Virus genome (UHGV): UHGV-1353888
Direction: 5' to 3' (one strand)
Source of the DNA: a virus
DNA: 64,000 bases
Part shown: positions 8,025 to 61,914 of the stretch, piece after piece
How positions within the stretch are numbered: the first letter of the stretch is position 1
How the letters are laid out: each line of letters starts with the position of its first letter
The notes under the pieces: model-generated
Database searches by the model: none
What the model was told of the DNA's origin: nothing
Seen by the model: the letters and a program-made list of their open reading frames with translations, nothing else
Translations under genes and position numbers: made by a program

Positions 8025-8029
8025 TTCAC

Positions 8030-9190: not shown

Positions 9191-9222
9191 AATAGCTTGA
9201 CATAATCAACCTAAAAAGTGTA

Positions 9223-15046: not shown

Positions 15047-15069
15047 CTATATTGCATTATCCTCAAACC

Positions 15070-15711: not shown

Positions 15712-16433
15712 TGAAGAAAGAACAACACACAGTAAAGCTCGTCGCCGAACTACAGAAGGCATACGATTACTTTAATGAACACCTTTTCAAGGACGAACTC
15801 CCTGATTGCATCATGGGGTTGTGCAATGCAAATAAAAGAACCTTGGGGTATTACCACCGTAGTCAATACCTGACTACGGAAGGAGCTATCAAAGTAGATA
15901 AGATTTCCCTAAACCCATCATACTTTGTATCCCAAGGTGTTAAAAAAGTCATGGGGACTCTCGTCCATGAGATGTGCCACCTTTGGCGTGAACGAATGTG
16001 TGACAAGCCATCTCGTGGTGGGTATCATGACCGTAAGTGGGGAAGCAAGATGAAAGAGGTGGGGTTGTACCCTTCCAATACCGGGGAAGAAGGTGGAAAA
16101 GAAACAGGGAATCAGATGACCCACTACATTATTGTGGATGGACCATTCGATAAATTCTTCAAGAAGCTTAAGGAAGAGCACAATATAACTCTTCCCTATA
16201 TTCATAAGACCCAACTGGGGTTTCTAGGAGGAGTCAACAATCCCATGCTCAAAGAGAATCCTGAACTTCTGGAAGCTATTGAAAGGGAAAATCCTTTTGG
16301 AAGCATCTCCAAGAACCGTTCCAACCGGGTCAAGTACATTTGCCCTGTATGCAACTCCAAAGTATGGGGAAAGAAAGAGCTCTATATTGTATGTGGGGCC
16401 TGCAAAGTAACTATGGACCCGGATGATAATTAG
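15711..16433 (+). CDS. SprT-like zinc metallopeptidase-domain protein
   Basis: Motif LVHEMCHLW (HExxH in SprT context) plus a C-terminal Zn-ribbon, CPVCNSKVWG...CGACK. Confidence 0.6.
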   Translation: MKKEQHTVKLVAELQKAYDYFNEHLFKDELPDCIMGLCNANKRTLGYYHRSQYLTTEGAIKVDKISLNPSYFVSQGVKKVMGTLVHEMCHLWRERMCDKPSRGGYHDRKWGSKMKEVGLYPSNTGEEGGKETGNQMTHYIIVDGPFDKFFKKLKEEHNITLPYIHKTQLGFLGGVNNPMLKENPELLEAIERENPFGSISKNRSNRVKYICPVCNSKVWGKKELYIVCGACKVTMDPDDN

Positions 16434-21947: not shown

Positions 21948-22751
21948 ATGACCTTATCTGAACTAACAAAGCTTATTCAAAAGCACGTAGGCGTAACTGC
22001 TGATGGCATTTACGGGAAGAACACCGCCTCCGCTGTTATCCAGTCCCTTGGGATTGAGCAGGAGGAGCCCAAGGAAGAAGCTAAGGAATACCCTTCTGCG
22101 TATAGTCTTGAGCCAAAAGACATGAAGGATGATTGGGAACTACTGACCCAGTGCATGATTCTCAATATCGTCAATTTGGAAGACCCCAAGTGCGTCAACC
22201 CGGAGACCATCCGAGTGACCAAGCTCCCTGCGGCGGACCGCGGTGGAGATTGGGAAGTAGCTGGATTGAGCGATGGGTTTGAGCCGGGTATCGTAAACAA
22301 CATCAGAAATCTTATCAACAAGGGAAACAAGATACAGGCATGGCATGAAATGATTCGGGCCATTGATGGCAAGTCCCTATCCCCCAAAGTGGCTGATGTT
22401 ATGAGGGCCCTGGATATTCCTGCTATCGAATACCGTTGCCGTTCCTTTGGATTTAATGCTGGATTGAGTGCGGCTATTAAGTGCCTACAGCGAGCCCTTG
22501 TATTTGTTTCAGGAATATCCATGGTGATTGATGGGAAGTGGGGACCGGACACACGTCAGTTCCTTGTCTCGTACACCACCCTGGATTCCGAGAAGAAAAG
22601 ACTCCTTGCACAATACAATCTTGAAATCCAGAAATATTATAAGTCTCTCAAGCAATACAAGGATGGGACCTTCGCTAAGGGTTGGACCCGGAGGTGGACA
22701 GAAGACGAGAGAGTTGCTAATAAATTTCTTGACTTAGGGCCTATTAAATAA
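21948..22751 (+). CDS. Protein with peptidoglycan-binding-like repeats (putative lysin or tail-associated lysin)
   Basis: The N-terminal VGVTADGIYGKNTASAVIQSLGI matches the PG_binding_1 pattern (DGxxGxxTxxAV). A second related segment, DGKWGPDTRQFLVSY, lies near the C-terminus. Confidence 0.45.
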   Translation: MTLSELTKLIQKHVGVTADGIYGKNTASAVIQSLGIEQEEPKEEAKEYPSAYSLEPKDMKDDWELLTQCMILNIVNLEDPKCVNPETIRVTKLPAADRGGDWEVAGLSDGFEPGIVNNIRNLINKGNKIQAWHEMIRAIDGKSLSPKVADVMRALDIPAIEYRCRSFGFNAGLSAAIKCLQRALVFVSGISMVIDGKWGPDTRQFLVSYTTLDSEKKRLLAQYNLEIQKYYKSLKQYKDGTFAKGWTRRWTEDERVANKFLDLGPIK

Positions 22752-34500: not shown

Positions 34501-37500
34501 CAACCCTGCTGAAATCGTACCGGGCCTTCTCAGTATCGGTGGGCTTCAAAACGTTCCCAGTGTGGACGACTTGTCCGCAATGTTCACTTCGGTCATCAAG
34601 GCCAACAGGCTTGGATGGTTGAAGAAGGATGCCGATGCTGTGCGTGCCGCCAAGGATATAACCATAGCCCAGCAAGCCCGTAGAGAGCGCATAGCCCAAG
34701 CCGAAAAGAACTACCAGACGAAGGTAGGACGAGGAGGCATGAAGAATGGGGTATGGACTTCTCCTGGAACGGTATGGCTTGAGCGTGATGCGGCATTGAC
34801 TGCGGAGAAGAACCGGATGGAAACGGTATACGCCATGAAGAGAAATGAAGCCCGTAAGGAACTTCTCAAATATCCTTTTGGTGCCCGCCTGCTCAATGTG
34901 CTGGATGACAACCGAAGAGCTATTGCTACCATGGAAGCTAACCTGATGCACCGCCGCGGAGCCATTGGCCTCGGAACAAAGGTGAGGGACTTTACCTACC
35001 TTTCCCGAACGTTTGCCGCGGTAGGCAAGGAGTCCATCAACTTCCGTAAGGCTATGATGGAACTACTGGACAGCAACGGCGAAGTGAAGCCGGAGTTTAC
35101 CCACCTTGTAGGTATCCTAAACAATGCAATCCAAAGCTACATGAGAGAAAACATCTCCCGTTACAACCAGGGTATTTCAGAAACCCTCGACAACATGCTT
35201 GCTATGAGCAAGGTGGCTGATGAACTTGGTCTGGACGGTAGTGAATACCTTGGCTTCAAGGGGAAGGACGTATGGAAGAATGTAAGTGAATACCTGACGA
35301 AGGACCCGGCCCTGGCTGAGAGTGCTCTGAACACAATCAACAATGGTCACTGGAACGAGATTGCCAAGATGAAGGATGGCTCGGTTGAACTCCGTCTCAT
35401 TATCAACAAGGCGAGCCAGCTAGATAACCTGCTCGCCTCTGCTGATGGTGGGGAGAAGAGCCGACTCCGTAGCAAGATGCGTAAGGCGAAGGCAGACCTG
35501 ATGAACAAGGCGGCGGAAGACTATGTGCTTTCCAGTATGGGAGTAACCGATACTGACCTCCGCTCCTTCCTCCTCGGTCTAAATTCTCCGGAACAAATCA
35601 CGGAAGCATTCAAATCAACTCCTTACCTGGACTCAAGCGTAATCTCCAACCTGATGGGAACGGACGAAAACCTCCGAACCCGCATCAGCAACACCTTGGA
35701 TTATGTGAGAAAGTCCACCGCTATTGAAATGCAGAAGCAGGGGGTAAACCTGACCGCTAACCAGCGGGACATGTCCCTTCTTGCTGATGGTGAAGTAGCG
35801 GATGCCCTGATAGCTACCGCTCGGAATGTGTTCAAGGAGACCCTATCCAAGGAGCGTAACGAAGAAAACATCTTCGCCAATCGTAAGAACCTGATGGATA
35901 GTGAACTTCAAATTCTTGGAGTTCGCGGATTCAGCAATCTCACGGATGCCTTCGGTGTTATTCAAAACACCCTGTCCTCCCAGGGCAGAGCCTATGTCAA
36001 CCAAGTAATTACGCATGACGTAGCAAGGAGCCTTGAGAGGCACGGGGTTGTTACCGGGGAGAGGACGAAGGAGAATACTCACCTTCTGGAATTCCAGAAC
36101 AAGGCCAACCCGCTGAACGGAATGTACGCAGAAAGGGACATCGCCCTTGTCCTCTACCAAGCCATGCGACCTGACGAAGCAATTATGCGGGGTAAGGAAT
36201 TTGGGAAGAAGTTACAGAGCCATTGGGGTAACAACTGGGGAATGCTGAGAAGCATCGGTGGATTTGTTTCCATGCTGACCCTGGTCCGTACTCCCTCCGC
36301 TACCCTCCGTAACATGGCGGGGACCGTGGGGCAAAGCCTGAACGCAGGTGCTCTCCCGTTTGACAAGGGGGTTATCAAGGGATATGGAGAAGTGTACCAG
36401 CTTGCCCAGGACTTCGTTGTTGCGAACATCCTAAGTTCCGCGGGTTCCGTTGGTGTGAGAGGTGCAGTGAACAGTGAGATTATGGCGAACGCTGAGAAGC
36501 GATTCAACCAGTCCATGCAGAGGTATCGTGACCTGGGCCTGCTCGACGCGGGCGCGGCGAACTTCATGAAGGAACAGTGGAAGCAGGGGCTTAATGAAAT
36601 GAGCCAGAAAGAGGGCAGTGAAATCAGCTTGCCCGACGAGGACGCAATGTTCTCTTCGCTCGTATCGGAACTAGGAGACCGGAGCACTGCAAAGAAAGCG
36701 ATGGACCTCGCCAAGCGCATTGCGTATGGTACGTTCGTTTCGCCTATGAGCGTTGCCGCTTCTGCTTACTCCGTCCCTGACGTTATCGCCAAGATAATCC
36801 TCTTCAATGGGGAGAGCCACAAGGTAAGCAAGGTAGTGAAAGCTGAGCTCGCACAAGCTGAGAAGCTGAGTAGAGCAGGGAAGGAAGACAAGCTGACAAG
36901 CTACATGAAGGACGCTTTGGCCGCTAAGAAGGAGGGGACTCTTACTTCCTACATTGAACGTAGGGCGGCGGACAGGACGAAGAACCTTCTTCCCACGGGT
37001 GCAAGAACTCCTGACTGGGTGAATAAGGTAAGCATCTTTGGGATGCCCTTCTTCTCCTTCATGTACCACACTTGGCAGAGTGTCCCTTACAGCATTGGCT
37101 ATGGGATGGAAGAACTTCGCGCCGCAAGGTTTGCAACCAATACGGCAGATAAAGTCTCCCTCTACATGGATGCCACCCAAAAGTTTGGGGGGGCTATCCT
37201 GGGCCAGTATGCTATGATGGAACTGATGCGGTTTGCCCTTCCGATTGTTACTCAAGCAATCATGGGTATGGTCACGGGTGATGACGAAGAAGACAAGATG
37301 CAGATGCTCGAAGCAAGTTCGTTTACCCGTTGGCTTGCACGGAATGCTGGACTCTCCGCGGACTACGACCAGAACGGAGAACTCTTTTTCTGGTTTGACA
37401 AGGATAATGAAACCTTCATAGTCCAGGATGGTCAGTACCTTCTGCCCTATAAGAGCCTTGGTGAAACCCTGGGTGCTATTATCAACCTTGCTGGATTGAA

Positions 37501-38440
37501 TCCTTTCTCTGACAAGAGTGAGGCTAACCAATTCGAGGATGACTACACCGCCCAGCTTCTGGATTATGTTCAGAGCACGGCTGGCTCTCCCTCCATGTGG
37601 ATTCAAATGCTCATTGATATGGGTTCAAAGGAACCCCGTCAAAGCGCAGACCTGAAACAACTGGGTGGGGTATCAGCAATCCCGGAAGCCTTTGGGAATG
37701 CCCTGCTCATGAGCTTAGGACTCCGCCCTTCTGCTGAACTTGCGGGCGGTAGGACGCTCGACTGGATGGAAAGGATAGCCACGACTGTAAAGGATAACCT
37801 CCCCCTATGGCCTACTCTGGTTCAGGGGGTGCAGACCTGGACAGGAATGAACCCGGATAGTGAAAAGGCAGGGTGGTTGTTGAAGAACCTTGGCTTCGGT
37901 GTTCGTCGCCCCAAGAATATTAATGATGTCCTCCGGGACAGTCTTGCTAAAGGTAACAAGGACCTCTCCAATTCGTTGAAGAACCAGCGCATCATGGATA
38001 CCAACCTTTACACGGCTGACCTTAGCGATGCAGAGTATGACAAGATTATCGAGGCTGATAAGGCTATGGTAATTGAGCAGAGTATTTCCCTCGCTAATAG
38101 GTTCCTGGCGTTGAAGGGGTTCCTCAAGGGGATGGGAGTCAAGGACGTTGACACGGTTCTTGAAGCATCTGCTCAGGAAGCGGGCATATCGTTGAAGGCT
38201 ATGGATGACCTTATCTCTGGCCGGGCCAAAGACTTCATCTCTAACCAGAGGTTTGACAAGATTGAAGAGACGAGAGACCGCTTGCTTAACAGGCCCGGTA
38301 TCACTCCGGAAGCTAAGAAAGCCATCCTCCGCCAGTTCCAACAAGCTGAGAAGGTGTATGACATCGACGCAGTAGATATTACTTCCAGCTTGATTGAGCC
38401 GGATAATGTGGAGCAGGAGGTGAAGAGCCAGAAGAGATAG
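28586..38440 (+). CDS. Giant virion-type protein (3284 aa) with one HExxH zincin-like motif
   Basis: Uninterrupted 9.85-kb ORF. Motif VLLHELTHVLDNH at about 33220. The N-terminus is Lys/Glu-rich. No DxDGD two-barrel RNA-polymerase motif was found by eye. Confidence 0.55.
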   Translation: MVQKGHSLYGLCPFLFTREGLTNILYASMPNDTNQEPLTYRSFGPKNPQTEYYKQLRREQSQTRWQEGRQERAQEAQQTPLSEEAKFLDTLNKIFKQEEEASYTQEQRAYTQEQRAISAEDRGIRKKEKEDSKKEKQASKRDKQIRDWLSGINTRTPGKSLGFSTEAEYEDYLTKTKPETLVDITKFKANDPEEIRRARSAVEEMGASLVLSGEHPQVAEGSFRSLEPQDKANRLLSKSKYGLTKTEDGSYVVDERFLARVNDPSTAGMRNENIARAIVNNLKSIISKEDERGRSDYLIPDVEEVTNLVRNARAKNRETYQEYEKIRERFAVPKGEEEQKAVAPEKVGEQNGGDSSRTQPTLVQHVLSEVDRFFTVNPEAMEYLNTLGAKTDEEIPGAIEDQKFREQARRGIELKDQLARAISEANPAIDLRTVRNELDDDALLYREAVSQFYGGEIPEEVSSAILNRTTQLAQQRQALVASDYAKAEKDAIAEHLKSLGLDEGVALSMGISGLTNRHIAESDTGMGTMRSAVNEALQQYQSGAGQLAASMSFGEQKGYRDPLSHMQWVNIGDGKMAYAFVDPGTNERVGNGFIVDFGNVDQQAKALGVSREAYLDNLALPFKMGNLNATDEANSLFAWDKLNGKLVENATAESTGGLAYYDNDLIERSVLRAVEAGAPAEVVDKYRENLLQLQKQNAKDMIDQMLGQYEAVANLVASDSKTLDTLFPGIRLAMKAMHNDFRDYYAENKGKMTNEEIISSFLADEQNRQGFLAITMAGAKTVARYKAAAIGASQFVSEGSRIIGLGTGDPAKYNNMWENLHKEEQAINTITTRAGGVAEWGAEIGNVLLQTAETTTTGGIGGVSGRVGTMTGRLAKLFGEAVALKAATPGTMRLGQVITKLGGGVERLVSGPGKSALTQASSRGSSLAISAKLFTDAAAPTFGEVSNATYNEEMARLAKDPETSGLSEAIRMEMAQNVATTKGSIAGIGYGIFSTILNNRAGFNRMIRKATGATTKAPGVFGKLESSLEGPGIFNLKGLPGKEKAISIAKQVGRLSASAVEGGTEELADEALQWAWQTLTQHGEIREEDIASERDVWNAASKIFILGAIGGEVGHGIQAMTALPPEASNRRDQAIQAQTLYGEAMRNALDSDVEGANTTLIEALKEGLDKSSALADAAITSKEAAMSVARNGNIQADENVINEWSSMISQLPDGTSVQLNNFSAEYSRLNRIGDEAGAASLHQAFVEDIAASDTLTDTQRQIAGELILQLTQGTPTAEFVEDVSTQVVLPEGIEELAAVEVEEAPAPVTEELKPEGDLVEQEVEEEVVQIGERDYGYNAPNPVPFVQMLSDWYTSETPITPEIRGEMNALLTDLELEDPDIYDFITDGKEDVDRATVRRLLTVANMTGPDGPLAVDMKGNTEIQKGNALLTDKTVWSKYDKDVEIQDSNWAADVFNMVGEGMQPIQNVLDDVLNTVQDERTRNNIKDIVEFLEERGVPVSVATIQGDSNIAGLTMMDPSSPEQHIALNFSAKNVKSSPADVLLHELTHVLDNHLRETDPLYAERVASIEEIVRSNWANIQKEAERVARTAVTEEEQAEIDQFIAEMEQALFNKQTEFEGGREFLPNVITNPIMGEVIAQGNLPFDQALDQWASPNNLARISQIGRGKVSRIVHNLINAVSSILKGAQVVEGKVNPNAAVIRVEEGTLADPTRMKIVSPKLAEYKPGVEDENVFITDRGVDAALFSSSENFVGAGKRLFRTANVKGGFTADKRTGKKVKEFAGNFQTYVNELVARNERTKRYVTQQTKGMEDSERATVINSIVNYTGDLGNTLDPKVTRRIFAETNNKVEQARVAREAEVDAANNEYAKFIADRRKAIIQAEARVNALAGTQALQNVGVAITQAVQVAKEVPQVDEKNPMAVAAARFRKAQEELNPVMKEIYSTLDEDAKAEMNEAYDKTMKAIAEDLAQDFDNPAEIVPGLLSIGGLQNVPSVDDLSAMFTSVIKANRLGWLKKDADAVRAAKDITIAQQARRERIAQAEKNYQTKVGRGGMKNGVWTSPGTVWLERDAALTAEKNRMETVYAMKRNEARKELLKYPFGARLLNVLDDNRRAIATMEANLMHRRGAIGLGTKVRDFTYLSRTFAAVGKESINFRKAMMELLDSNGEVKPEFTHLVGILNNAIQSYMRENISRYNQGISETLDNMLAMSKVADELGLDGSEYLGFKGKDVWKNVSEYLTKDPALAESALNTINNGHWNEIAKMKDGSVELRLIINKASQLDNLLASADGGEKSRLRSKMRKAKADLMNKAAEDYVLSSMGVTDTDLRSFLLGLNSPEQITEAFKSTPYLDSSVISNLMGTDENLRTRISNTLDYVRKSTAIEMQKQGVNLTANQRDMSLLADGEVADALIATARNVFKETLSKERNEENIFANRKNLMDSELQILGVRGFSNLTDAFGVIQNTLSSQGRAYVNQVITHDVARSLERHGVVTGERTKENTHLLEFQNKANPLNGMYAERDIALVLYQAMRPDEAIMRGKEFGKKLQSHWGNNWGMLRSIGGFVSMLTLVRTPSATLRNMAGTVGQSLNAGALPFDKGVIKGYGEVYQLAQDFVVANILSSAGSVGVRGAVNSEIMANAEKRFNQSMQRYRDLGLLDAGAANFMKEQWKQGLNEMSQKEGSEISLPDEDAMFSSLVSELGDRSTAKKAMDLAKRIAYGTFVSPMSVAASAYSVPDVIAKIILFNGESHKVSKVVKAELAQAEKLSRAGKEDKLTSYMKDALAAKKEGTLTSYIERRAADRTKNLLPTGARTPDWVNKVSIFGMPFFSFMYHTWQSVPYSIGYGMEELRAARFATNTADKVSLYMDATQKFGGAILGQYAMMELMRFALPIVTQAIMGMVTGDDEEDKMQMLEASSFTRWLARNAGLSADYDQNGELFFWFDKDNETFIVQDGQYLLPYKSLGETLGAIINLAGLNPFSDKSEANQFEDDYTAQLLDYVQSTAGSPSMWIQMLIDMGSKEPRQSADLKQLGGVSAIPEAFGNALLMSLGLRPSAELAGGRTLDWMERIATTVKDNLPLWPTLVQGVQTWTGMNPDSEKAGWLLKNLGFGVRRPKNINDVLRDSLAKGNKDLSNSLKNQRIMDTNLYTADLSDAEYDKIIEADKAMVIEQSISLANRFLALKGFLKGMGVKDVDTVLEASAQEAGISLKAMDDLISGRAKDFISNQRFDKIEETRDRLLNRPGITPEAKKAILRQFQQAEKVYDIDAVDITSSLIEPDNVEQEVKSQKR

Positions 38441-42491: not shown

Positions 42492-42851
42492 CTAATCATC
42501 ATTCAATTCTTTTGTTATGATGTCAATGCTTGTTTTGCAGTCAGACAATAATACTTTCTTTTCATCAGCCATTTCCTTGGGAACCTGCGTACCCCGGACC
42601 TTGGCTTCGAGACTAGTAACCCTGTCGAGTATGGAACGAAGGGATTTGATTGCCGCAGGAGTGTCCAGGTTGGCCTTCCACATTTGCTCAGTCTCTGCTA
42701 TCTTAATGACATAGATGAACAGGTCAGACCGGAGGGTGTAGAAATACCGGGCTTGGTTGGCTTGGGATATTACTTCTTCAAGATGGTCCGCATGAAGGGG
42801 GCCAGAAAGAAGAATGGCTATAGCTGATATTAGTGGGGTTGGTTTCTTCAT
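42492..42851 (-). CDS. Small secreted protein with an N-terminal signal peptide
   Basis: MKKPTPLISAIAILLSGPLHA followed by a polar helical domain. ATGA overlap with the upstream gene. Confidence 0.45.
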   Translation of the reverse strand: MKKPTPLISAIAILLSGPLHADHLEEVISQANQARYFYTLRSDLFIYVIKIAETEQMWKANLDTPAAIKSLRSILDRVTSLEAKVRGTQVPKEMADEKKVLLSDCKTSIDIITKELNDD

Positions 42852-43300
42852 TTTCGGTGTGCTTGTAAAATGGCTAGTTCGTGGGATTCAAAGTATGAGG
42901 TATTTACGTGGGAACATATTTCTCCATCAGTGATTTCAGTCCATGCCAACTCATAACCGCGGGCCTTGTCGAGAGCTTCTTCCATTGCTTCTTTGTCTTC
43001 CCCAAACTCACTGGGTTTATCTATGTATTCCTTTGAGTTTCGTATTATCTCAATGGCAGTCCATAAGGAATCAGTGATGGTAAAGTAACGAAGTTCCTGG
43101 TCGAAATCCATCTTTCCAAATCCGCTATAGAGAGCAACTACGTAGTTTCCTGGAAGTCCCGCGGCTCTGGTCAACAGGAAAGTAATCTTCGGTTCGCCTG
43201 GAATGGGGGCCTCTTCTACTTCCTGCTCCAGGCTGGGCTTAAACTGAATGTCTAGTTCAATCATCTTTGAGCAGTGGGGACACGGTATTTGATTTGTCAT
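42848..43300 (-). CDS. Hypothetical protein with an N-terminal CxxC
   Basis: 150 aa; CPHCSKMIELD at the N-terminus. Confidence 0.4.
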   Translation of the reverse strand: MTNQIPCPHCSKMIELDIQFKPSLEQEVEEAPIPGEPKITFLLTRAAGLPGNYVVALYSGFGKMDFDQELRYFTITDSLWTAIEIIRNSKEYIDKPSEFGEDKEAMEEALDKARGYELAWTEITDGEICSHVNTSYFESHELAILQAHRK

Positions 43301-43659
43301 TGTGCTTCCTCCTTTTGTTTGAGTTCTTCCAGGAGAACCTCCTCATTGCCCACCTGTATATTTTGAGTGTTCAGGTTGATAATCTTCCTATGCCCATCAC
43401 CTGTGTAATTTAGTTCAGCCAGATAGATGTCATGTTCGAATAATTGCCATGCTCTTTTCCTCTTTTCATAGGTTCCAAAGATGTCACTAGGCCAGTTGCC
43501 TACATTCTCTCGGTCTTCAACAAGAGAGATAGCTTCCTCCAATGTATTCACAACCGTCAGGTATTCTAGTTTAATAATGCGGCCTACCTCTTTGTAGATG
43601 ACTACACGGAAATAATTACCTGGGGTACGATAGATTGAAAATGTAAGTTGTGGGTTCAT
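43297..43659 (-). CDS. Paralog-family protein, copy 1 (TFxIYRT...FRVxIFKE...TLEEAI family)
   Basis: MNPQLTFSIYRTPGNYFRVVIYKE...NTLEEAISLVEDRENVGNWPSDIFG. 4-nt ATGA overlaps on both sides. Confidence 0.55.
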   Translation of the reverse strand: MNPQLTFSIYRTPGNYFRVVIYKEVGRIIKLEYLTVVNTLEEAISLVEDRENVGNWPSDIFGTYEKRKRAWQLFEHDIYLAELNYTGDGHRKIINLNTQNIQVGNEEVLLEELKQKEEAQ

Positions 43660-44015
43660 TTCTTGCTCAGTTCTCTCTTTTTGAATTCCATGAGAAGGTC
43701 AAACTCTTTTTCATCCATAAGGTTTACGGCGATGTTATAGACTACTCCCCGGCCAGCGTAGATGCAAGCTTCCATGAGAAGTGCCGCGTCATCATTAGGT
43801 ACATTCTTAAAGAAAATCCATCTGTCTTCATCATCATCAAACCCATCGTCTGGTCGTTTCTTGTAGTTATTCCTGTCTTCCGCTACCTGGATAGCTTCCT
43901 CCAGTGTATCAACTACTTCAATATGTTTAGTAAGGAAAACCAGGGTGTCTTCTTTGAAAATACTTACCCTGAACTTGTTCTTTTTGGTTCGGTGAATTGA
44001 AAAAGTTAATATCAT
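43656..44015 (-). CDS. Paralog-family protein, copy 2
   Basis: MILTFSIHRTKKNKFRVSIFKED...VDTLEEAIQVAEDRNNYKKRPDDGFDDDEDRW. Confidence 0.55.
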   Translation of the reverse strand: MILTFSIHRTKKNKFRVSIFKEDTLVFLTKHIEVVDTLEEAIQVAEDRNNYKKRPDDGFDDDEDRWIFFKNVPNDDAALLMEACIYAGRGVVYNIAVNLMDEKEFDLLMEFKKRELSKK

Positions 44016-44368
44016 TTATTCTCTCCTTCCATTTCGGCTTGACATTTCATAAGTAGGGAAAGCTCTTTCCGGTTTACATGGCTCTCGTATAGAGCGTATT
44101 GTATTTCTTTGTTGTGGTCTACATAGCATTCCAAGAGAGCACGGTCATACTCAGTGCGTCTCCAGAATTCACGTCTATCTTCATCCGTTTCAAAGCCGTC
44201 ACTCAGTCGGTTCTTATAATGCTTCCTGTCCTTGGCCAAGGCGATAGCTTCCTCTAGCGTATCAACCACCTCAATGTGTTTGATGGCGAACGAGAGAGCG
44301 TCTTCTTTGAAAACAATGACCTTGAATTTATTATCGTTGGTCCTATAGATTGTAAAAGTTAATTTCAT
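44012..44368 (-). CDS. Paralog-family protein, copy 3
   Basis: MKLTFTIYRTNDNKFKVIVFKED...VDTLEEAIALAKDRKHYKNRLSDGFETDEDRREFW. Confidence 0.55.
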   Translation of the reverse strand: MKLTFTIYRTNDNKFKVIVFKEDALSFAIKHIEVVDTLEEAIALAKDRKHYKNRLSDGFETDEDRREFWRRTEYDRALLECYVDHNKEIQYALYESHVNRKELSLLMKCQAEMEGENK

Positions 44369-44700
44369 TTGTCTAGTAGGGTTTTAAGGAGGGAGTATTC
44401 ATTAGAGTCAAGAAGGTAGTCACCGTAGATTTTATATTCTAAATCCCCTTCGTCATTAATCCAGGTTACTATTAGGGGTGGGTCTGTATTTGTCATCCAG
44501 AAACTATTTCGAGCAGGGTCCGTTTTGAATTTATCATCAGGTTTCTTCTCCAAGCTATCCCATTCTTTCACCAGTTGAACAGCCTGTTTCAAGGTATCAA
44601 ATTCATCAATGTATAGGGGGTAGGACTGATACCTGTCTTCTTCGAAAATAATTACTCGGAAGTTGCCTTCATCAGTTCGTAATATATCGTAGGTTTTCAT
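44365..44700 (-). CDS. Paralog-family protein, copy 4
   Basis: MKTYDILRTDEGNFRVIIFEED...FDTLKQAVQLVKEWDSLEKKPDDKFKTD. Confidence 0.55.
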   Translation of the reverse strand: MKTYDILRTDEGNFRVIIFEEDRYQSYPLYIDEFDTLKQAVQLVKEWDSLEKKPDDKFKTDPARNSFWMTNTDPPLIVTWINDEGDLEYKIYGDYLLDSNEYSLLKTLLDK

Positions 44701-45047
44701 TGGGGTAATTCTTTCTCTATAAATTCAATAAGCTTGGTAAGTTCGTCAGGGTCTACTCTAGACTGATACAGGTTACATGCAATTTGGTTGTCCGTATTCA
44801 CATAAAATTCCAGAAGCTCCACATCTCTGAGTAAACTTCTCCATATGTCTTCCCTTTCATCATCAGATTCATAGCCATCATCCAGCAGGTCCCGATAATC
44901 TTCCCTGTGTCTGGCTATCCATAATGCTTCATCCAAGGTATAGGTTGTTGCCATGTGCTTGACATAGAAGTTCCTACTATCTTCTTTGAAAATAAAAACC
45001 CGGAACCTATTGTTAGGGGTTCTATAAAGGGTGAATGTAATTTTCAT
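44697..45047 (-). CDS. Paralog-family protein, copy 5
   Basis: MKITFTLYRTPNNRFRVFIFKED...YTLDEALWIARHREDYRDLLDDGYESDDEREDIW. Confidence 0.55.
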   Translation of the reverse strand: MKITFTLYRTPNNRFRVFIFKEDSRNFYVKHMATTYTLDEALWIARHREDYRDLLDDGYESDDEREDIWRSLLRDVELLEFYVNTDNQIACNLYQSRVDPDELTKLIEFIEKELPQ

Positions 45048-45382
45048 TTTAAAAAGGCATCTGCAATTTGTTTTCTTTGAGTGAGCTTAACCTCCCGAAT
45101 AGTGAAGCCAAGTCTTTCCTTAAACGTATATACCGTGGAATAGGCCATCTTGTTTTTGCAGGGATAATAAGTAAGAAGCGTTCCCATTCTTGAGACATTA
45201 TCAAAGCCGTCACTCGGCCACTCCTTGTAAGTATCCCTACCCTTAATGAGCGAGATGGCCTCCTCGAACGAATCCATATACTGGACGAGATGGACACAGT
45301 TTCGATGGGTAGCCGTCTCTTCGAACAAGAAAATACTATAGTACGAATCGTCCATTTCGTACAGTTCAAACGTTATGTGCAT
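45044..45382 (-). CDS. Paralog-family protein, copy 6
   Basis: MHITFELYEMDDSYYSIFLFEE...MDSFEEAISLIKGRDTYKEWPSDGFDN. Confidence 0.5.
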   Translation of the reverse strand: MHITFELYEMDDSYYSIFLFEETATHRNCVHLVQYMDSFEEAISLIKGRDTYKEWPSDGFDNVSRMGTLLTYYPCKNKMAYSTVYTFKERLGFTIREVKLTQRKQIADAFLK

Positions 45383-55534: not shown

Positions 55535-56227
55535 TTATCTCTCCGCATGTTCTTTTACCTTGTCACGTTTAACCAACGGCAAGACGGGAGGAAACACCCC
55601 GCTTGCGTAGTCCTCCCGGCTAACTCCCTGCCAAGCATAACCTTTGTATGTAGGCTGACGGCGTTTTACTACGTTGTTAATTCCAGCCGCTAACCCCTTT
55701 ACCGCCCGCGCCGCTTCCCAGTAACTAGGATATATGGTGATAGGCTCCAGGGTTTCCCGGTTTATCTGCATGACGGGCCGCGCGGATTTGTGCAATCCCT
55801 TTTCAATGTTCCCCTTCAATGTCTTTTTCCGTTTTTTCACGCAGTTACCGTAACGTATGTTTTCCCGGTGAGTACACCATTGCAGATTCTCCGCACGGTT
55901 GTTCATGGGGTTTTCATCTAAATGGTTTACATCTAACTCGCTTATTTTGTACCCTTTAAGATGCGCGCCTAACGGCACAAACGCACCTGCAACAAGGCGA
56001 TGAACATAATATTTATAGTGCCATCCTCCCTTTTCATCCAGCAAGGGAACATATTTATAACCGTTCCGGCTAGTCTGGATGCGTAAAAGCCTGTTGACAA
56101 GCTTGCTCCACACCGCGCCCATGTTACTCACAAGGTACAATTCCCTGCAACCTTTCAGTGGTACAGGTTCCCACAGTTCCCCCGGTCTGGTACATTCAGC
56201 CAGTGTCTTCTTCTTCATCTTCTTCAC
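55535..56227 (-). CDS. HNH homing endonuclease (NUMOD4 plus HNH_3 plus C-terminal DNA-binding region)
   Basis: N-terminus ELWEPVPLKGCRELYLVSNMGAVWS (NUMOD4-like). HNH core HRLVAGAF...VNHLDENPMNNRAENLQWCTHRENIRYG. C-terminal IYPSYWEAARAVKG...YKGYAW, which resembles a NUMOD1 or IENR-like module. Confidence 0.75.
   Translation of the reverse strand: MKKMKKKTLAECTRPGELWEPVPLKGCRELYLVSNMGAVWSKLVNRLLRIQTSRNGYKYVPLLDEKGGWHYKYYVHRLVAGAFVPLGAHLKGYKISELDVNHLDENPMNNRAENLQWCTHRENIRYGNCVKKRKKTLKGNIEKGLHKSARPVMQINRETLEPITIYPSYWEAARAVKGLAAGINNVVKRRQPTYKGYAWQGVSREDYASGVFPPVLPLVKRDKVKEHAER
55535..56227 (-). mobile_element. Free-standing homing endonuclease gene (a selfish mobile gene)
   Basis: The HNH/NUMOD4 architecture is typical of phage homing endonucleases. 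It sits at the head of the early block next to the non-coding origin-like region. Confidence 0.5.
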
Positions 56228-56412: not shown

Positions 56413-56869
56413 GTCTCCTTTATATAGTAGGCACGCCGTTTTTCAAGCTTTTTGTGCGCCATTTCCCCGCTTTTCAAGCTTTTTACAGTGTACCGCAATT
56501 GTTGCGTTAGCCCTAAAAACTGCACCATTACTGTTACTTCTGGCTTTCTTTGGACTTTCTCCCGAAAATCGTCGCACAGAAAGGGGCCTAAAAGGGCCTT
56601 TTGAGCAGGGAGCCTTACTATTATACCCGGCGATTTTGCCCGCCCGTATACGCAAACCTCATGCGTTTTATTTTCGCCAATTCCGCACTTTTCGCCCTAA
56701 ACGTACTAAGTGCACCTAAAATGGTACATAAATCCTCCATTCGTAACGGAAAGAGTACTATTCACTTTTTATACAACTGTATACATTCTAGAAAGAATAC
56801 AACGTTGTATTCTTTTCGTACCGTTATAGGTACTGGTTCGTACCATTTCCGTGCTATACGCCCTAAACG

Positions 56870-57095
56870 GTCTTCCCGTTCGTGTAGGGAGTAACGGGCA
56901 TTTCGTCCTTTTCGTTCGTGTAGGGAGTAACGGGCATTTCGTTCTTCCGTCCTTCTGGTCCATGTAGTTCGATTAGGGCGTGTAGTGCGTATAGCTCCAT
57001 CCTTTCAGTCCCTATAGTTCGATTAGGGCATTCCGTTCACTTCGTCCTTTAAGTCCGTATAGTGCGTTTAGGGCATTCCGTTCACTTCGAGCGTT
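56870..57095. repeat. Iteron array. Two 36-bp-period direct repeats (CGTTCGTGTAGGGAGTAACGGGCATTTCG) and two roughly 45-bp repeats (TAGTTCGATTAGGGCATTCCGTTCACTTCG), all with a TAGGG(C/A) core.
   Basis: Direct repeats at 56877-56905 and 56913-56941, at 56975-56989 and 57016-57030, and at 57027-57045 and 57071-57089. Inverted GCCCTAAA copies at 56510, 56693 and 56857, and GCCCTAA(A/T) at 58228 and 58649. Confidence 0.7.
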
Positions 57096-57100
57096 TCGAG

Positions 57101-57118
57101 TTTTACATTTTTGTAAAA
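57101..57118. promoter_or_regulatory. Palindrome TTTTACATTTTTGTAAAA, copy 1
   Basis: Perfect inverted repeat. A second copy lies at 57441-57460. Each is followed within about 40 nt by GTTTCCTATTGACCCCTT. Confidence 0.5.
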
Positions 57119-57440
57119 TATCAACATATCATGATGTGTAAATATGTTGTTTCCTATTGACCCCTTCACTACATATCAGGGCATATAATGGGAGAGACAC
57201 ACTATATGTAGTGTTCTCTGCTCTATCAGGCACCAATCATTTTGACGAATATCAAAATGTAAAACTAAAAATTTATACGTTTGAGAGGTTTTGTATAAAG
57301 ATTATATACACTTGTATACAAAGTGAGAGTAAAAGGTATTTGTTTCCCATTGGCACCATACATCATGTAGTGCCTATTGGTTACGGGAACACTACATACA
57401 GGAGTCATGATAACATATCTACATATCATGATATGATGAT

Positions 57441-57460
57441 GTTTTACATTTTTGTAAAAC
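57441..57460. promoter_or_regulatory. Palindrome GTTTTACATTTTTGTAAAAC, copy 2
   Basis: Perfect 20-bp palindrome, followed by CTGTTTCCTATTGACCCCTT as in copy 1. Confidence 0.5.
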
Positions 57461-58239
57461 TAAAAGGAGAGAAGCCCCTTCTGTTTCCTATTGACCCCTT
57501 TATATTTCAGAGCAGGAAAATTCCAACACTCCGGACTTCACGCACTAAACGCCCCTTTACGTTCTAAGTCAACACGTTACGCATATCCGCAACCGATTAG
57601 GCATTACAAACGTTTCTCGAAATTATCTCTTAAAAAACAAATGTTATTTCATAGTACGTATTGATTATTAGGGACTTACGTTTTCAATGTCGTACATAAA
57701 CGTAATGATAATATTAGTTCAGAAAGGTACGCTATCGGCGTAGAATACAATAAGCCCCCTGAAAAAGGTACTTGAATCGGTGCATTTCGGACGGAAAAAT
57801 CGCTTAGAACGTGAAGGGCACCACGACGGTGACTCCCCCTTCGAGCGTAACGCGCTCATTAGTAAATCATTAGGTCACATTTTTCCGGAAATGGGGTTTC
57901 TGATTTTTCAAAATGGGTCCCATGCCGAGGGGACACCACGGGTCTCGATTGCCTTTTCCTGCTCCGGCGTGGGCCTAAAATAGGCGAGAGGGGGTACGTA
58001 TGGACAGACTGTACGTGAACGGGGGTGTGAGGGGCCTTCTATGGGCCTACGCATAGGTGAGTGCGGTTGAGGTCATTTAGCCCGGAAGGTCCATATTGGG
58101 ATGGAAATTCCTGAACTATTTTCATAACTGCCTCAGTGATAATCATTTTATGGAGCAGGGAAGTCCAAATAATCCGATTGTGTGATGATGTGTATATTTT
58201 GAATACGAGATAACTTCACTCTCCAGGTTACGCCCTAAA

Positions 58240-58400
58240 TCCTTAATTTTTAATAATATATAAATACTGTGTACTATGTAATATCTAATTACTATATAGA
58301 GGTATAAAAATATTTATTATTTAATATAAAAATAATACCAAAAAAGAAAAGAAGAAAAGACGAAATTGAAAAAGTAAAAAAAAATAATTCTAGGTCTATA
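58240..58400. other. AT-rich tract (over 85% A+T) inside the non-coding region; candidate DNA-unwinding element
   Basis: TTAATAATATATAAATACTGTGTACTATGTAATATCTAATTACTATATAGAGGTATAAAAATATTTATTATTTAATATAAAAATAATACCAAAAAAGAAAAGAAGAAAAG... Confidence 0.45.
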
Positions 58401-58893
58401 TGGGGGAGGGGGGAATAACAACACACACTATGCCCCCTTTTTCCACTGCTTGTATTTACATATTAAAGGGTTATGGTGTGAAAAGACACGTAAATATCGT
58501 GAATACGCATCTGCACACTTTTTGATACAGTAACACAAGTTTTCACCACGTTATCCCAAATTTATACCTGTTTTAACCCCATTTTGTACATTACCATTCT
58601 ATCTTGGGATATTCTGTTATTCTCTAAAAAACACCAAATCGAATCGCCCTACACGCCCTAATCGCACCTAATCGTACCTAAGCGGACCCTATCGCACTCC
58701 CCGTTCTCTACGTCCTCTTCCTCCCAAAACCCCCTCTACGCCCCTCTCCTCCCCAACTTTTTCTCTCCGCACACGCAAATTTAGGTTGACTCTTTCTCTG
58801 CTACCTGCTATACCTCTCCCACACGCGAAGGACCTGTTTTACCCCCTCGCACCACCAAATGCCACATCCTATGTGGCCAAACACTAATCGAAC

Positions 58894-61800
58894 ATGAACC
58901 CCGTAGAATACGATAAGCCCACTTCGGGCGGTACGGACCTGACCATTGTAGCCTTGTCTGCTCAGTCATGGTCCACCTGTTATAGACGGAATACAGCCCG
59001 CCGAGCCCATGTGGGGAGTTGTAAAAACCCCGCACTTCTCCCATTTTCCAAGCTGGCAAGCTTCCTGCAAAGCGGAGATAACCATAATCTTTCCCTGCTC
59101 GAAGAAGTAAGCAATCAAATTTCAGTACACTACTGTATCTCAAATGGTATTAAACCTGACGAAGTTGAGGGCATTTTGCCGGACGGGGTGTACAGTTATG
59201 GCTTGAAAAGCTTGAGCGGGATGGAAAAAGAGGAGGCGGCGAAGATTTCAAAAGCCCACCTCCCGGCTATTGTCCCCTCTGTTATTTTCGACCCTTCCTA
59301 CAGCTATGCCGACATGTCCCCGAAGAAAGCCGTCTCCTACTACGGCGAAAGCTGGAAGCATACCGGGGTCTTCGGATTTGACATTGACCTGGGCAAGGAT
59401 GGCAACACGGACGATGCGGACGAGTTGTACGATATGGGCGTTTCTTTCTTTTCCACCCTGCCGGGCTTCCTGCTCCTGTTCCGCAGTCCCAGCGGTGGAT
59501 TGAAGGTGCTTATACAGGTAGACGGAGCTACGCGGGTTCGGTTGAACGAAGGTAGCAACGAAGGAAGGATAGCGTTGCACAAGGCCATCTACAAGCGGAT
59601 TAGCGAGGGGATTAACGAGAGTGCCCCCTTCGTGCTTGACTCCCGTACCAACGATGTAGCCAGGATTCAGTACCTTTACCGGGAACCGGGCTACGTATAT
59701 GTACCATCCGAATTAGATTCGAATGGTACATACTCGGGGTTGGGCCATTGGGATGCACGGGATATTTATGCGGAGAAGGATGCGGATTCCCTCCATTTGC
59801 TGGACGAAGAAAACCGAAAGGCTTTGCCTTCCAGCTTGTTGGGCTTTATATCCTACCTGCACGATACGGGCTACGTGAGCTACGCGGAGCACCTGGAAGG
59901 TAATCTCGTAGGGTATGCGGACGGGTTCAAGTGTTCCTGCCCCTGCTGTATTGAAGAAGCGGGAGGGCAGATAGGCAATACGGACTTGTGGTTCATACCG
60001 GGCGACGGGGACATGAATACGTGGAGAGTGACCTGCTTCCATGAGAGCTGTAAGACCGGGAAGGGCACTAAGACCGGGAAGGACATTACCAGCATGGCCG
60101 AGCTATACCGCGGGTATGAGAGCTATTTAAGCGAGAAGGTAAGCAACCTAACTAGCGAAGCGGTAGCCTCGGCGAAGGAAAAAGAAAAGGAGCCGGAAGA
60201 AGGGGAAGAAAATATAGCGTTCGATTACATGCGGGACTACATTACCTCCCTGCTCCAATCCAACAGCAAGACCCGTTACCGGGTGAACCCTCCTTACAGC
60301 ACTGAGCAGATACTTGAGGGCGCGAAGCCCTGGGCTGGCAAGCTTATCATGGAAGAATATACCGTGAAGAGCAAGGGCCGCCCGAAGAAGGGAGAAGAAG
60401 GAGAAGAGGGCGGCGAGAAGAAGGAAAGGCCCGCGATTTGCCGGGAGAACCTTGAAATCATCCTTGCTGAATGCTTTGACATCTTCGTTACCTACAATAC
60501 TGTTTCCCAGGAATACTGGGCGATTGATACCAAGAACAGGTACGTATCCAACTGCTATAGTATCGACCAGTTCCGGAAACCGCTGGCCTATGCTGTTCAT
60601 GAGTTCGTGTACAAGCCGTTCGGGGTAGCCTACGGGATGGTGGATGTTGAGCTTGAACGCGCCCTTCCAGTCATCGGCAATAGCCATTACTTCAATCCAT
60701 TCCTGAAAATGATTGAGTATGATGATTGGGATGGGAAGGAGGACCGGGTGGGGAGGTTTATTGACATCCTCATTTCGGCGGTTGACCCCTCGTGGAGCCT
60801 TGATGGTGGAAGCGGAGAACTCCTGAACAAGATAAAGGCTGACATCGCACGGGACCCGAAGGGGGCTGAGAAGATTGGTTTGACCGAAGCCCTGGTGGAC
60901 CCGAAGGAATACACGAGGGAGGTGATGAAGACATTCCTCGTTTGTGCCTACCGGAAATACATACATGGTTGCGAACCCCACATGTACACCAAGGCCGAGG
61001 AGCACGACAACATGTGCCCTGTAATTTATGGTGAGCAGGGGGTGGGGAAGAACACGCTGATTGAAAGCCTTGTTACCGTGCTTGGTGAAGGCTATCTGTG
61101 GAACCCTTCCGGCCTCCGTGACATCAGTGGGGATAACAAGGACAACAACATGAAGGCTTCCTCCTGCCTTATTGCCCACCTGGACGAAGTGGACAAGTAT
61201 ACTGAGGGGGAAGAAGCGATTAGCACGTTGAAGCAGGTCATCACGAGCAAGACCAACAAGATTCGTCTTCCTTTTGCCCGGCACTTGCAGGACCTCCCTG
61301 TAAAAGTCAGCTATATCGGAAGTACGAACAAGAGTGCTTTCCTGCTCGATGCCAGCGGAAACCGACGCTTCGCTACCATCATCACCAAGGGGGGCTACAA
61401 CATGAATGAAATCCAGTGGCTACGTGCTACCAACATCTGGCCTCAGGTAAAACGGATGGCGGAAGAAGACGAAAACGTAGGCCGCTACGGGTGGTACAAG
61501 CTACAGAAGATAACCGAGCATAACAACTCAACGAACGTAATGAGCGAAGGGACCGATGTGGCCTTACTGGAACTTCTGGTTGATGCCAGCGACATCATGG
61601 ATACCAAGGGCCACATTCTTCTTCGTCACGTTAGTCAGGAGTTCTCCAACTACACGACAATCCTGGAGACCCTACGCTCTATGCAAGGGTCTACCAAGCG
61701 TGTTACCCGGAACGATGTAATGAGATTTACGAACGACATCATCAAAAAGTACGAGTTGAGCGATAGGTCCGATTTGTACAAGAGGGTCCGAAAGACACTT

Positions 61801-61914
61801 TCCGGCAAACGCCCAGGTTCCACTATCAGCAAGGTTGTCAACCAACCCTCCTTCATCCCTGCTTTCCTGTATGAAGAGATGGTCGCCGAAGGCTTGGCAC
61901 CGAGAATACGCTAA
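58894..61914 (+). CDS. Primase-helicase: AEP-type primase N-terminal domain, Zn-finger and SF3/D5-like helicase
   Basis: AEP motif I GVFGFDIDLG and motif II-like SPSGGLKVLI. A Cys cluster CSCPCC...CFHESC. Walker A YGEQGVGKNT, Walker B IAHLDEVD and SF3 motif C YIGSTNKS. Confidence 0.65.
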   Translation: MNPVEYDKPTSGGTDLTIVALSAQSWSTCYRRNTARRAHVGSCKNPALLPFSKLASFLQSGDNHNLSLLEEVSNQISVHYCISNGIKPDEVEGILPDGVYSYGLKSLSGMEKEEAAKISKAHLPAIVPSVIFDPSYSYADMSPKKAVSYYGESWKHTGVFGFDIDLGKDGNTDDADELYDMGVSFFSTLPGFLLLFRSPSGGLKVLIQVDGATRVRLNEGSNEGRIALHKAIYKRISEGINESAPFVLDSRTNDVARIQYLYREPGYVYVPSELDSNGTYSGLGHWDARDIYAEKDADSLHLLDEENRKALPSSLLGFISYLHDTGYVSYAEHLEGNLVGYADGFKCSCPCCIEEAGGQIGNTDLWFIPGDGDMNTWRVTCFHESCKTGKGTKTGKDITSMAELYRGYESYLSEKVSNLTSEAVASAKEKEKEPEEGEENIAFDYMRDYITSLLQSNSKTRYRVNPPYSTEQILEGAKPWAGKLIMEEYTVKSKGRPKKGEEGEEGGEKKERPAICRENLEIILAECFDIFVTYNTVSQEYWAIDTKNRYVSNCYSIDQFRKPLAYAVHEFVYKPFGVAYGMVDVELERALPVIGNSHYFNPFLKMIEYDDWDGKEDRVGRFIDILISAVDPSWSLDGGSGELLNKIKADIARDPKGAEKIGLTEALVDPKEYTREVMKTFLVCAYRKYIHGCEPHMYTKAEEHDNMCPVIYGEQGVGKNTLIESLVTVLGEGYLWNPSGLRDISGDNKDNNMKASSCLIAHLDEVDKYTEGEEAISTLKQVITSKTNKIRLPFARHLQDLPVKVSYIGSTNKSAFLLDASGNRRFATIITKGGYNMNEIQWLRATNIWPQVKRMAEEDENVGRYGWYKLQKITEHNNSTNVMSEGTDVALLELLVDASDIMDTKGHILLRHVSQEFSNYTTILETLRSMQGSTKRVTRNDVMRFTNDIIKKYELSDRSDLYKRVRKTLSGKRPGSTISKVVNQPSFIPAFLYEEMVAEGLAPRIR

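Follow-up and report, generated by a model that had tools for sequence, protein, structure and literature searches.

The plasmid sites cer of ColE1 and psi of pSC101 are dif-type cores for the host recombinases XerC and XerD, carried by replicons that have no recombinase of their own. They are located in non-coding DNA by the origin, with element-specific sequences on one side of the core and with a centre unlike that of the chromosomal dif. The canonical dif layout spans 28 bp and consists of two 11-bp arms and a 6-bp centre, and in cer and psi the core is accompanied by ~180 bp of accessory sequence (PMC5357621). A similar arrangement is seen in a 2.5-kb gene-free interval (positions 56413-58893, hereafter the gap) of the virus genome UHGV-1353888, analysed here as a stretch of 64,000 nucleotides (the window), and in the relatives of this virus. 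The carrier, however, is a ~70-kb terminase-encoding phage rather than a small plasmid, and its putative accessory region is longer than that of cer and variable, with 131-395 nt from the core to a second conserved sequence (block 2) as against the ~180 bp. In addition, no ArgR, ArcA or PepA sites are known for Akkermansia, the host suggested below, and resolution by this site is put forward as a proposal.

Mimics of the host dif site are also carried by integrative mobile elements exploiting Xer recombination (IMEX), which include the VGJ, CTX and TLC phages, the gonococcal genetic island (GGI), microviruses and double jelly-roll (DJR) phages. As in these elements, the present phages combine a host dif mimic with the lack of a recognisable integrase, and some of their arms are degenerate. 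They differ in that no integrated copy was found, the virus is ~10x larger and encodes a terminase, most clades have both arms perfect rather than one degenerate, and the site sits in the origin region. A recombination site on a large phage is known from P1, where lox lies near the replication and packaging signals and serves, with Cre, for cyclisation and for resolving dimers of the plasmid-prophage. P1 encodes its own recombinase, whereas here the host Xer proteins would be borrowed, and a plasmid-prophage state is a proposal. The literature searched, which was covered in part, describes dif mimicry or Xer use by filamentous phages, microviruses, tailless DJR phages, genomic islands and plasmids, with no terminase-encoding phage of this size among them.

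The third comparison concerns replication. Rep proteins of the Staphylococcus aureus pathogenicity islands (SaPIs) are self-loading initiator helicases that read short iterons, the iterons lie in opposite orientation on both sides of a central A+T-rich region, and in SaPI5 the primase and Rep are fused (PMC9371898). The present phages likewise encode a VapE/superfamily 3 (SF3) helicase fused to a primase beside a non-coding, probable origin, and opposed element-specific iterons around an A+T region, with a word that changes between lineages, are seen in the family. Here the origin would lie upstream, not downstream, of the gene, in a region that is 10x longer and has extra distal arrays; moreover, the opposed geometry is undetectable in the window, and a C-terminal winged helix would be hypothetical. 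The ori/crr of phage P4, used with its alpha protein, is comparable to the SaPI origin. Iteron plasmids and oriC are resembled by one clade of relatives (L028; strains, clades and loci carry L numbers throughout), in which clusters of TT(T/C)TCCACA, with 16 copies in the gap and 3 outside, accompany an A+T tract and sites for integration host factor (IHF). The window clade, in contrast, has neither the DnaA-box word nor the IHF consensus in its gap, and there is no RepA- or pi-type Rep.

On balance, these comparisons of sequence suggest that the interval is probably a composite non-coding replication and maintenance region, in which a plasmid-like origin of the SaPI/P4 type is combined with a cer/psi-like Xer site, and this reading is held with moderate confidence.

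The dif-like site and the phage host

The window represents most of a ~71-kb genome with a circular map (reconstructed at 71.4 kb). Among ~50,000 deposited phage genomes it has no DNA match and no TerL match, and its Pol A is at most 25% identical to any of theirs. About a dozen strain variants, 93-99% identical, are present in public metagenome assemblies, and graded relatives were obtained through alignment of Pol A (64%, 45% and 41% identical) and of the primase-helicase (24-40%). All relatives keep a gene-free interval of 2.5-3.0 kb upstream of the primase-helicase, one clade having an extra 291-codon open reading frame (ORF) inserted beside the primase; the gap is therefore a family character and not an accident of one genome. 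As a control region, the 2.5-kb gene-free stretch is confirmed to be genuine and to be conserved across a family of uncultured ~70-kb Akkermansia phages.

The most conserved part of this region (57596-57893) had been missed by an earlier sequence-only reading, in which the gap was described through its iterons. It is not an iteron set, and contains a host dif mimic with adjoining conserved sequences. The dif-like Xer site (block 1) lies on the plus strand at 57596-57623, reads ATTAGGCATTA CAAACG TTTCTCGAAAT and is the aligned orthologue of the sites of the relatives. When an inclusive pattern for block 1 was scanned over one genome per species (185,579 species), 33 loci matched, 28 of them in Akkermansia, one per species. 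Many of the Akkermansia matches are on large chromosomal contigs (up to 352 kb), in varied intergenic contexts. The consensus from these 28 species, ATTTTGCATTA C(a/g)(t/c)ATA TTATGCGAAGT, has two 11-bp arms that form imperfect (8/11) inverted repeats around a variable 6-bp centre, and its outer ATT, which lies outside the search pattern, is conserved in 26-28 of the 28 species. This consensus equals, as the reverse complement, the dif site of A. muciniphila ATCC BAA-835 predicted by Kono et al., ACTTCGCATAATATATGTAATGCCAAAT (PMC3025954 supplement). Judged by the sequence identity of its core, block 1 is a mimic of the Akkermansia dif (XerC/XerD) site, and the phage sites share the 11+6+11-nt layout with the host consensus.

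The match of the arms is graded across the family. Both are identical to the host dif (22/22) in L035/L126, L032-34 and L128/131/132, and the L028 clade has one mismatch in each. Among sister strains of the window, L017 has two mismatches in the XerD arm and one in the XerC arm, and L019 has one and two, respectively; the window itself has one in the XerD arm and four in the XerC arm. The XerC arm has thus decayed in the window lineage, and the window copy may therefore be weakened or inactive. In every clade the 6-bp centre differs from the CATATA of A. muciniphila. An IHF-consensus site, TATCAATGAGTTA, is positioned exactly 21 nt beyond the XerC arm in 32 of ~50 members. No Pfam domain of a tyrosine or serine recombinase was found in essentially all window ORFs of >=110 aa or in the gene tables of the relatives, although most phage proteins are orphans, so that a divergent recombinase could escape such a search.

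Additional dif-like sequences were observed in some members. The L028 clade (3789-3853 in L028; gap positions 1747-1811) has a second dif-like 28-mer, more degenerate with its 2+3 arm mismatches, in direct orientation 9 nt downstream of the first, and L032 has an isolated extra XerC-type arm 211 nt downstream of the core. The divergent member L127 carries a dif-like site at 8795-8827 (minus strand), downstream of the primase-helicase and on the opposite strand.

Block 1 forms part of a single-copy module, consisting of palindrome A, block 1 and block 2, which is kept between clades in a fixed order and in a fixed orientation relative to the primase. Copy 1 of palindrome A (57100-57119; GTTTTACA TTTT TGTAAAA) is kept in all strains, and the palindrome occurs as TTTTACA-N4/5-TGTAAAA in most clades of the family. 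Copy 2 (57441-57460) pairs with 57099-57148 as the two arms of an imperfect inverted repeat of ~360 nt. Strain L018 lacks this copy, strains L019 and L022 have mutated versions of it, and it is hence dispensable. Block 2 (57820-57893, plus strand) consists of ACCACGACGGT, ~30 nt, TAGTAAAT, ~10 nt and ATTTTTCCGGAAA, the last of which includes a 10-bp palindrome, TTTCCGGAAA. Its family form opens with ACCAC(C/G)ACGGT, followed after ~30 nt by TAGTAAAT and after ~10 nt more by ATTTTTCCGGAAA, and the spacing from ACGGT to TTTTCCGG measures exactly 50 nt in four of the clades and 52 nt in one more. About 50 family members have block 2, at a distance of 131-395 nt from the core, and in every case it is on the side of the XerC arm. 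The words of block 1 and block 2 occur in one copy each in the 64-kb window, and 256 kb of host loci contain neither block 2 nor palindrome A. From its position and conservation, block 2 is a candidate accessory sequence. The conserved core is a DNA element, not an RNA or a protein.

Several other functions were tried for the core and rejected. As a structured RNA, it gave RNAalifold energies of -1.4 and -1.8 kcal/mol for the two strands (15 sequences from six clades), with just three invariant pairs and no covariation. Folding z-scores are ~0 over 57500-58200 and strong only at 56700-57000 and 57100-57400, where they are equal on both strands, as expected for DNA palindromes. A micro-protein over block 2 was discarded, every frame having stops in several clades. 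Block 1 was also compared with sigma70, sigma54, Bacteroidota-type and phage RNA polymerase promoters, and no consistent -35/-10 geometry was seen; the core words are single-copy in the window and therefore do not represent a reiterated promoter.

The assignment of a host draws on a second line of evidence. One match to the core (L173; OGUM01002686.1) lies on a bacterial contig, not a phage, within a type I-C CRISPR-Cas locus (Cas3, Cas5d, Cas8c, Cas7) that occupies 81-5078 and 5430-9918 and has 69 repeats of GTTTCAATTCACGCACCTGTGAAGGTGCGAC. Its Cas8c shares a 90% cluster with WP_102736643.1 of Akkermansia muciniphila, the species to which the locus is ascribed. Of the 68 spacers, at least 13 are directed against the L126/L035 clade (91-100% identity), and the spacer at 9741 corresponds to the dif-like core with its phage-specific flank, differing from the host dif only in the centre and on one side. 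The spacers and the dif mimic are two independent lines, on the basis of which the phage family is assigned to Akkermansia. The array holds no spacer against the clade of the window, for which Akkermansia is the host suggested by family membership and by the dif-derived site.

The gene-free interval and its origin-like features

The gap is bounded on the left by a 62-codon leftward gene (ATG at 56412) and on the right by a 1006-codon rightward gene that starts at 58894. The statement of the sequence-only reading that neither strand holds a credible ORF was borne out, no gene being found under any stop-codon reading, and the gap of the relatives contains no conserved protein-coding gene, the gene-free interval being kept. 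The longest standard ORFs (136 and 97 codons, both with a TTG start) have no Pfam match and are disrupted by indels in sister strains. Reassignment of stop codons was also considered and dismissed, suppression of TAG, TGA or TAA each opening no convincing gene in the gap. Scans for tRNA and tmRNA, and Rfam at the gathering score and at E<=10, returned no match there.

Every repeat, palindrome and A+T tract listed from sequence alone exists, with small corrections to coordinates and values. The 14-bp direct repeat TTTTCAAGCTTTTT is at 56440 (first placed at 56441, 1 nt off) and 56471, and the TAGGG(C/A) cores are at 56885, 56921, 56974, 57024 and 57069, within repeats of 36-nt and 45-50-nt period. 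GCCCTAA(A) occurs on the plus strand at 56510, 56694, 56860, 58232 and 58655, its earlier positions having been 0-6 nt off. The palindrome GTTTTACATTTTTGTAAAA does have two copies (57100 and 57441), but copy 1 ends in T and 19 of 20 bases match; GTTTCCTATTGACCCCTT is present at 57149 and 57483. The A+T tract has 83.9% A+T over 58240-58400, not the >85% claimed for it, and is the highest in A+T of any 160 nt in the whole 64-kb window. Phased repeats resembling CCTAATCG are found at 58646-58690. Eight of the 13 window copies of GCCCTAA lie inside the gap, which makes up 3.9% of the sequence (~36-fold enrichment), and the clustering of motifs in the gap exceeds chance. The broader description, a cis-acting region between divergent transcription units with the primase-helicase directly downstream, is supported.

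The repeats fall into two fields. On the left (56510-57095), three plus-orientation copies of GCCCTAA (56510, 56694 and 56860) precede an array of 36-nt and 45-50-nt units that carry the inverted word TAGGGC (56885-57069). On the right (58646-58700, plus strand), five 9-10-nt units of the form CG(C/T)(A/C)CCTAA(T/G) are phased direct repeats upstream of the rightward promoter. A 16-bp near-palindrome, ACACTATATGTAGTGT (57199-57214), inside the inverted repeat 57099-57461, resembles the NrdR-box consensus; no ribonucleotide reductase gene was seen alongside it.

Candidate divergent promoters, read from sequence, are located at both edges. The leftward sigma70-type promoter (56419-56446, minus strand), just upstream of the ATG at 56412, comprises TTGAAA (56446-56441), a 16-nt spacer and TATAAA (56424-56419). 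Its -35 element is copy 1 of the TTTTCAAGC repeat, copy 2 of which is at 56471-56484, and the block TTCAAGCTTTTTGTGCGC recurs at the left gap edge in clade L028. The rightward sigma70-type promoter of the primase-helicase operon (58786-58814, plus strand) comprises TTGACT, a 17-nt spacer and TATACC, and at its position the relatives have TTGACA-N16-TATAAT (L032) and TTGACT-N17-TATGGT (L028). A generic promoter and terminator scan gave no excess over shuffled expectation; the leftward promoter was not listed by that scan because the last base of its -10 hexamer is A.

The adjacent gene (58894-61914, plus strand) begins 80 nt past the rightward promoter and encodes a fused primase/SF3 (VapE, DUF5906) helicase of 1006 aa, a candidate self-loading initiator for an origin next to it. 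The protein has a Pfam VapE-like domain (1.1e-22) and DUF5906 (1e-08), and belongs to PHROG DNA helicase and primase families. A helicase profile built from five clades gave PDB 7PDS as the only strong structural match (2.3e-18), which is the SaPI1 Rep1-DNA complex (PMC9371898). It is homologous in all clades, with 24-40% identity, and its C-terminus is the least conserved part.

The A+T-rich tract (58207-58405) is a candidate for the DNA-unwinding element of the origin. Towards the right (58338-58415) it becomes a purine-rich run on the plus strand, which ends in GGGGGAGGGGGG; a copy of GCCCTAA abuts the tract at 58232 and the five phased repeats follow it. Opposed iterons around the corresponding tract are clearest in L129, with four GGAACA only on the left, five TGTTCC only on the right and three in the other 9.8 kb, an arrangement reached in 0 of 200 shuffles. 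In L131 and L128 the five copies of the 8-mer TAACAGAG/CTCTGTTA are all beside the tract, with both inverted copies on the right, and L181, with AGGACC to the left and GTCCT to the right, partly shows the opposed geometry. The L028 clade has 16 of 19 copies of TYTCCACA and seven of TTTTCCACA in the gap, and in this clade TT(T/C)TCCACA is gathered in two duplicated ~440-nt clusters, each with a very A+T-rich tract and perfect IHF sites. These clusters (2644-3065 and 4414-4857; gap positions 602-1023 and 2372-2815) are a direct duplication of 67% identity that flanks the conserved module, and the duplicated segment holds an IHF site, DnaA-box-like words, an A+T tract and a G-rich run. The duplicated layout recalls the two-part ori/crr of phage P4. 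The window gap contains no DnaA box (TTATNCACA), with 0 copies of TTWTNCACA and 0 of TCCACA, and no IHF consensus, and its GCCCTAA has the same orientation on both sides of the A+T tract.

The repeats are less constant than the tract and the module. The sequence-only reading had named conservation of its repeats in relatives as a check; the TAGGGC array differs between strains in copy number, by indels of whole units, and palindrome copy 2 can be lost. One 10-nt unit of the right-hand phased repeats is missing in several strains. Repeat words are also swapped between clades, with GCCCTAA in the window, TGTGGAAA in L028, and ACCCACGG plus a 25-mer in L032; the phased run at the position of 58646-58700 is C(G/A)AAACG(T/C)C in L028 and ACCCACGG in L032. 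At the position of the left repeat field, other members have extended tandem repeats with units of 9 nt or 17-19 nt, at which assemblies from short reads break. The segment 58207-58405 is invariant in all seven strains that cover it, the neighbouring coding sequence having a nucleotide diversity of 0.05-0.1. As a separate observation, this constraint goes beyond the needs of a generic unwinding element, sequence neighbouring the segment differing by 2-10% among the seven strains, and the invariance may stem from a recent sweep or from recombination.

Proposed Xer resolution weighed against other explanations

In the favoured reading of the gap as a replication and maintenance region, the divergent sigma70-type promoters at its edges would drive the leftward small genes and, to the right, the primase-helicase with the replication and structural genes. 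The right half would hold an origin of the SaPI/P4 kind, in which the A+T unwinding tract is bordered by clade-specific short repeats, and the fused primase/SF3-helicase from the adjacent gene would read these repeats and load itself, probably assisted in sister clades by host DnaA and IHF. This architecture is seen in the relatives, and for the window it is suggested by position. The centre would be a Xer recombination module made up of the 28-bp dif mimic, an IHF-type site on the XerC side (at 21 nt, in many members) and then block 2. Given two copies in direct repeat, host XerC/XerD would bring about recombination between them like that at plasmid cer/psi or P1 lox, and the outcome would be that dimers or multimers of the circular replicating genome are converted to monomers, or that terminally redundant DNA is cyclised. 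The centre is always unlike that of the host and phage-specific sequences adjoin the XerC arm, which favours a cer/psi-like site over an IMEX attP; we infer that the core is used phage-to-phage rather than for integration.

A number of observations weigh against this reading. The XerC-type arm of the window has 4/11 mismatches and an unrelated centre next to it, and the dif match of the window taken alone is borderline (an estimated ~0.05 expected per window); the assignment of the XerC and XerD arms rests on the orientation in Kono et al. Opposed iterons at the A+T tract of the window are not above chance (k=5, p ~0.15; none at k=6). Cumulative GC skew, proposed by the sequence-only reading as a check on its origin, has its global minimum at ~28.0 kb of the 71.4-kb reconstruction and not at the gap, near which there is only a local minimum (59.5 kb), although skew in phages is confounded by transcription and, here, by the composition of a giant gene. 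The C-terminal 197 residues of the primase-helicase gave an unusable single-sequence AlphaFold2 model (predicted local distance difference test score 36.5). Genes for partition, for a repressor or for any other plasmid or lysogeny function are not recognisable, and the need for multimer resolution is not obvious in a lytic phage that packages from concatemers. The iteron-type origin first proposed for the gap is thus upheld by the architecture of relatives, with opposed iterons and, in some clades, DnaA-box-like and IHF words, and falls short in the window, where that architecture is undetectable and the skew minimum lies elsewhere. An origin is probable for the phage family and moderately supported for the window, which is graded lower because it has no opposed pairs above chance, no DnaA or IHF words, a skew minimum elsewhere and an unmodelled C-terminus.

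The strongest alternative is lysogeny of the IMEX type, in which the dif-like site would be an attP that host XerC/XerD integrate at the Akkermansia dif, block 2 and the IHF-type site would be arm-like accessories or sites for a Xer-activating factor, and the remainder would be origin and promoters. Several clades match the host dif in both arms without a mismatch, a recombinase could not be detected in the phage, and the well-studied phage-borne dif mimics (CTX, VGJ and TLC phages, microviruses, DJR phages) are all attachment sites. Furthermore, the centres of L032 and L035 are only 1/6 positions off that of A. muciniphila, partial centre homology being tolerated by a VGJ-type attP, and arm degeneracy of the kind seen in the window is usual for IMEX sites, for example those of TLC and GGI. 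However, no phage genes lie beside dif in the 28 Akkermansia species representatives and no genome among them has two sites, the search covering one genome per species. Integration was sought in metagenomes with an attR-type pattern, the core with its phage-side flank, which gave 42 human-gut loci; 13 of these have a long left flank, one being the CRISPR locus L173, and all 12 informative loci carry phage genes there, which represents the free form. Moreover, no protein from an NCBI genome falls in the primase or Pol A clusters, and no repressor or lysogeny module is recognisable. On this limited sampling, integration of this kind is considered rather unlikely.

Another explanation would be that the gap comprises an origin and promoters only, with its repeats as initiator or regulator sites and the likeness of block 1 to dif as a relic or coincidence. 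The origin-type architecture of the relatives and the degenerate block 1 of the window are compatible with this, but clades with primases of only 24-30% identity still agree with the host at 22/22 arm positions, which implies selection for recognition by the host Xer proteins. In addition, the block 1 pattern is essentially confined to Akkermansia among the 185,579 species, and the core is single-copy with fixed orientation and fixed neighbours. This explanation is held to be improbable.

Slightly less credit is given to a packaging or terminus function, under which the module would be a pac or cos site, or would be in a direct terminal repeat, and the genome would end in the gap. Contig ends do cluster 100-680 nt to the left and ~1.5 kb to the right of the dif-like site: 9 of the 17 contigs of >=65 kb end 111-677 nt left of the core, with the second hotspot ~1.5 kb right, and the ~2-kb segment between the hotspots often assembles alone. 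The lox site of P1 is near pac, and P1 pac has an IHF site. The clustered ends are, however, inside tandem arrays of 9-nt or 17-19-nt units, (TA)n tracts or, in the L028 clade, a 34-nt exact internal repeat between the duplicated clusters, and are therefore assembly breaks and not genome termini. Other full-length contigs begin at arbitrary places, and the terminase genes are ~12 kb away. From the same ends it is seen that the core is bordered throughout the family by large iteron arrays and an A+T/(TA)n tract, and since short-read assemblies (L168-L209, L016, L021, L023, L029-L031) break in the gap, deposited contigs under-represent the lengths of the arrays. The contigs of L177 and L195 end in Nextera adapter read-through.

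Finally, long non-coding RNAs or small proteins encoded in the gap, for which its length, the G+C-rich look of 57780-58160 and a 67-codon ORF overlapping block 2 (57780-57983) might speak, are very improbable in view of the Rfam null at E<=10, the lack of consensus structure or covariation on either strand, z-scores near 0 apart from strand-symmetric palindromes, stops in the block 2 frames of several clades, ORFs broken by strain indels and no recoding.

Other genome features and implications

The genome is arranged with the terminase, the structural genes and a 3284-codon orphan ORF on the plus strand, followed by a minus-strand block of small orphan genes and then the gap. To the right of the gap, again on the plus strand, are the fused primase/SF3 helicase, Pol A, a helicase and a PD-(D/E)XK nuclease, leading back into the terminase. 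The structural block includes a ThyX-type thymidylate synthase (15016-15711), a SprT-like protein (15711-16433) and a PG_binding_3 protein that is a probable lysin (21948-22751), all on the plus strand, and is closed by the 3284-codon ORF (28586-38440, plus strand). An N4-like virion RNA polymerase was considered for the latter and rejected, with size alone in its favour and no Pfam, PHROG or PDB-sequence similarity. Eight abutting ORFs of 111-150 codons with overlapping stops and starts (42492-45382, minus strand) have no Pfam match and may be a paralogue array. An HNH/NUMOD4 homing endonuclease gene (55535-56227, minus strand) adjoins the gap and is replaced or divergent between strains, HNH genes come and go near Pol A in relatives (L016-L034), and L035 has an IS605-family TnpB (OrfB_IS605/Cas12f1-like_TNB; 13043-14281, plus strand) just upstream of its terminase genes.

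Akkermansia muciniphila, a keystone commensal of the gut, is being considered as a next-generation probiotic, and to our knowledge no Akkermansia phage has been well characterised. A widespread ~70-kb gut phage family, formerly an orphan, is now assigned to this genus. Since dif words are taxon-specific, a dif mimic could also serve for host prediction, and the probable phage origins of SaPI-Rep type mapped here across the family, each lineage with iterons of its own, make the co-evolution of initiator and iteron testable. At a practical level, the gap region is a systematic breakpoint in public short-read assemblies of this family.

Tentatively, the integrase-less ~70-kb A. muciniphila phages may depend on host XerC/XerD, either as tailed IMEXs or as plasmid-like episomes resolved by Xer. 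If this is true, their lysogeny or carriage would run on a borrowed host recombinase and a novel conserved accessory element (block 2), the exploitation of Xer would extend from small single-stranded DNA and tailless phages to genomes of Caudoviricetes scale, and the phages of a therapeutically important gut commensal would have a hidden temperate or carrier lifestyle. Exact host Xer arms kept in the middle of a replication region would in any case point to a conserved dependence on a housekeeping recombinase of the host, whatever the use to which it is put.

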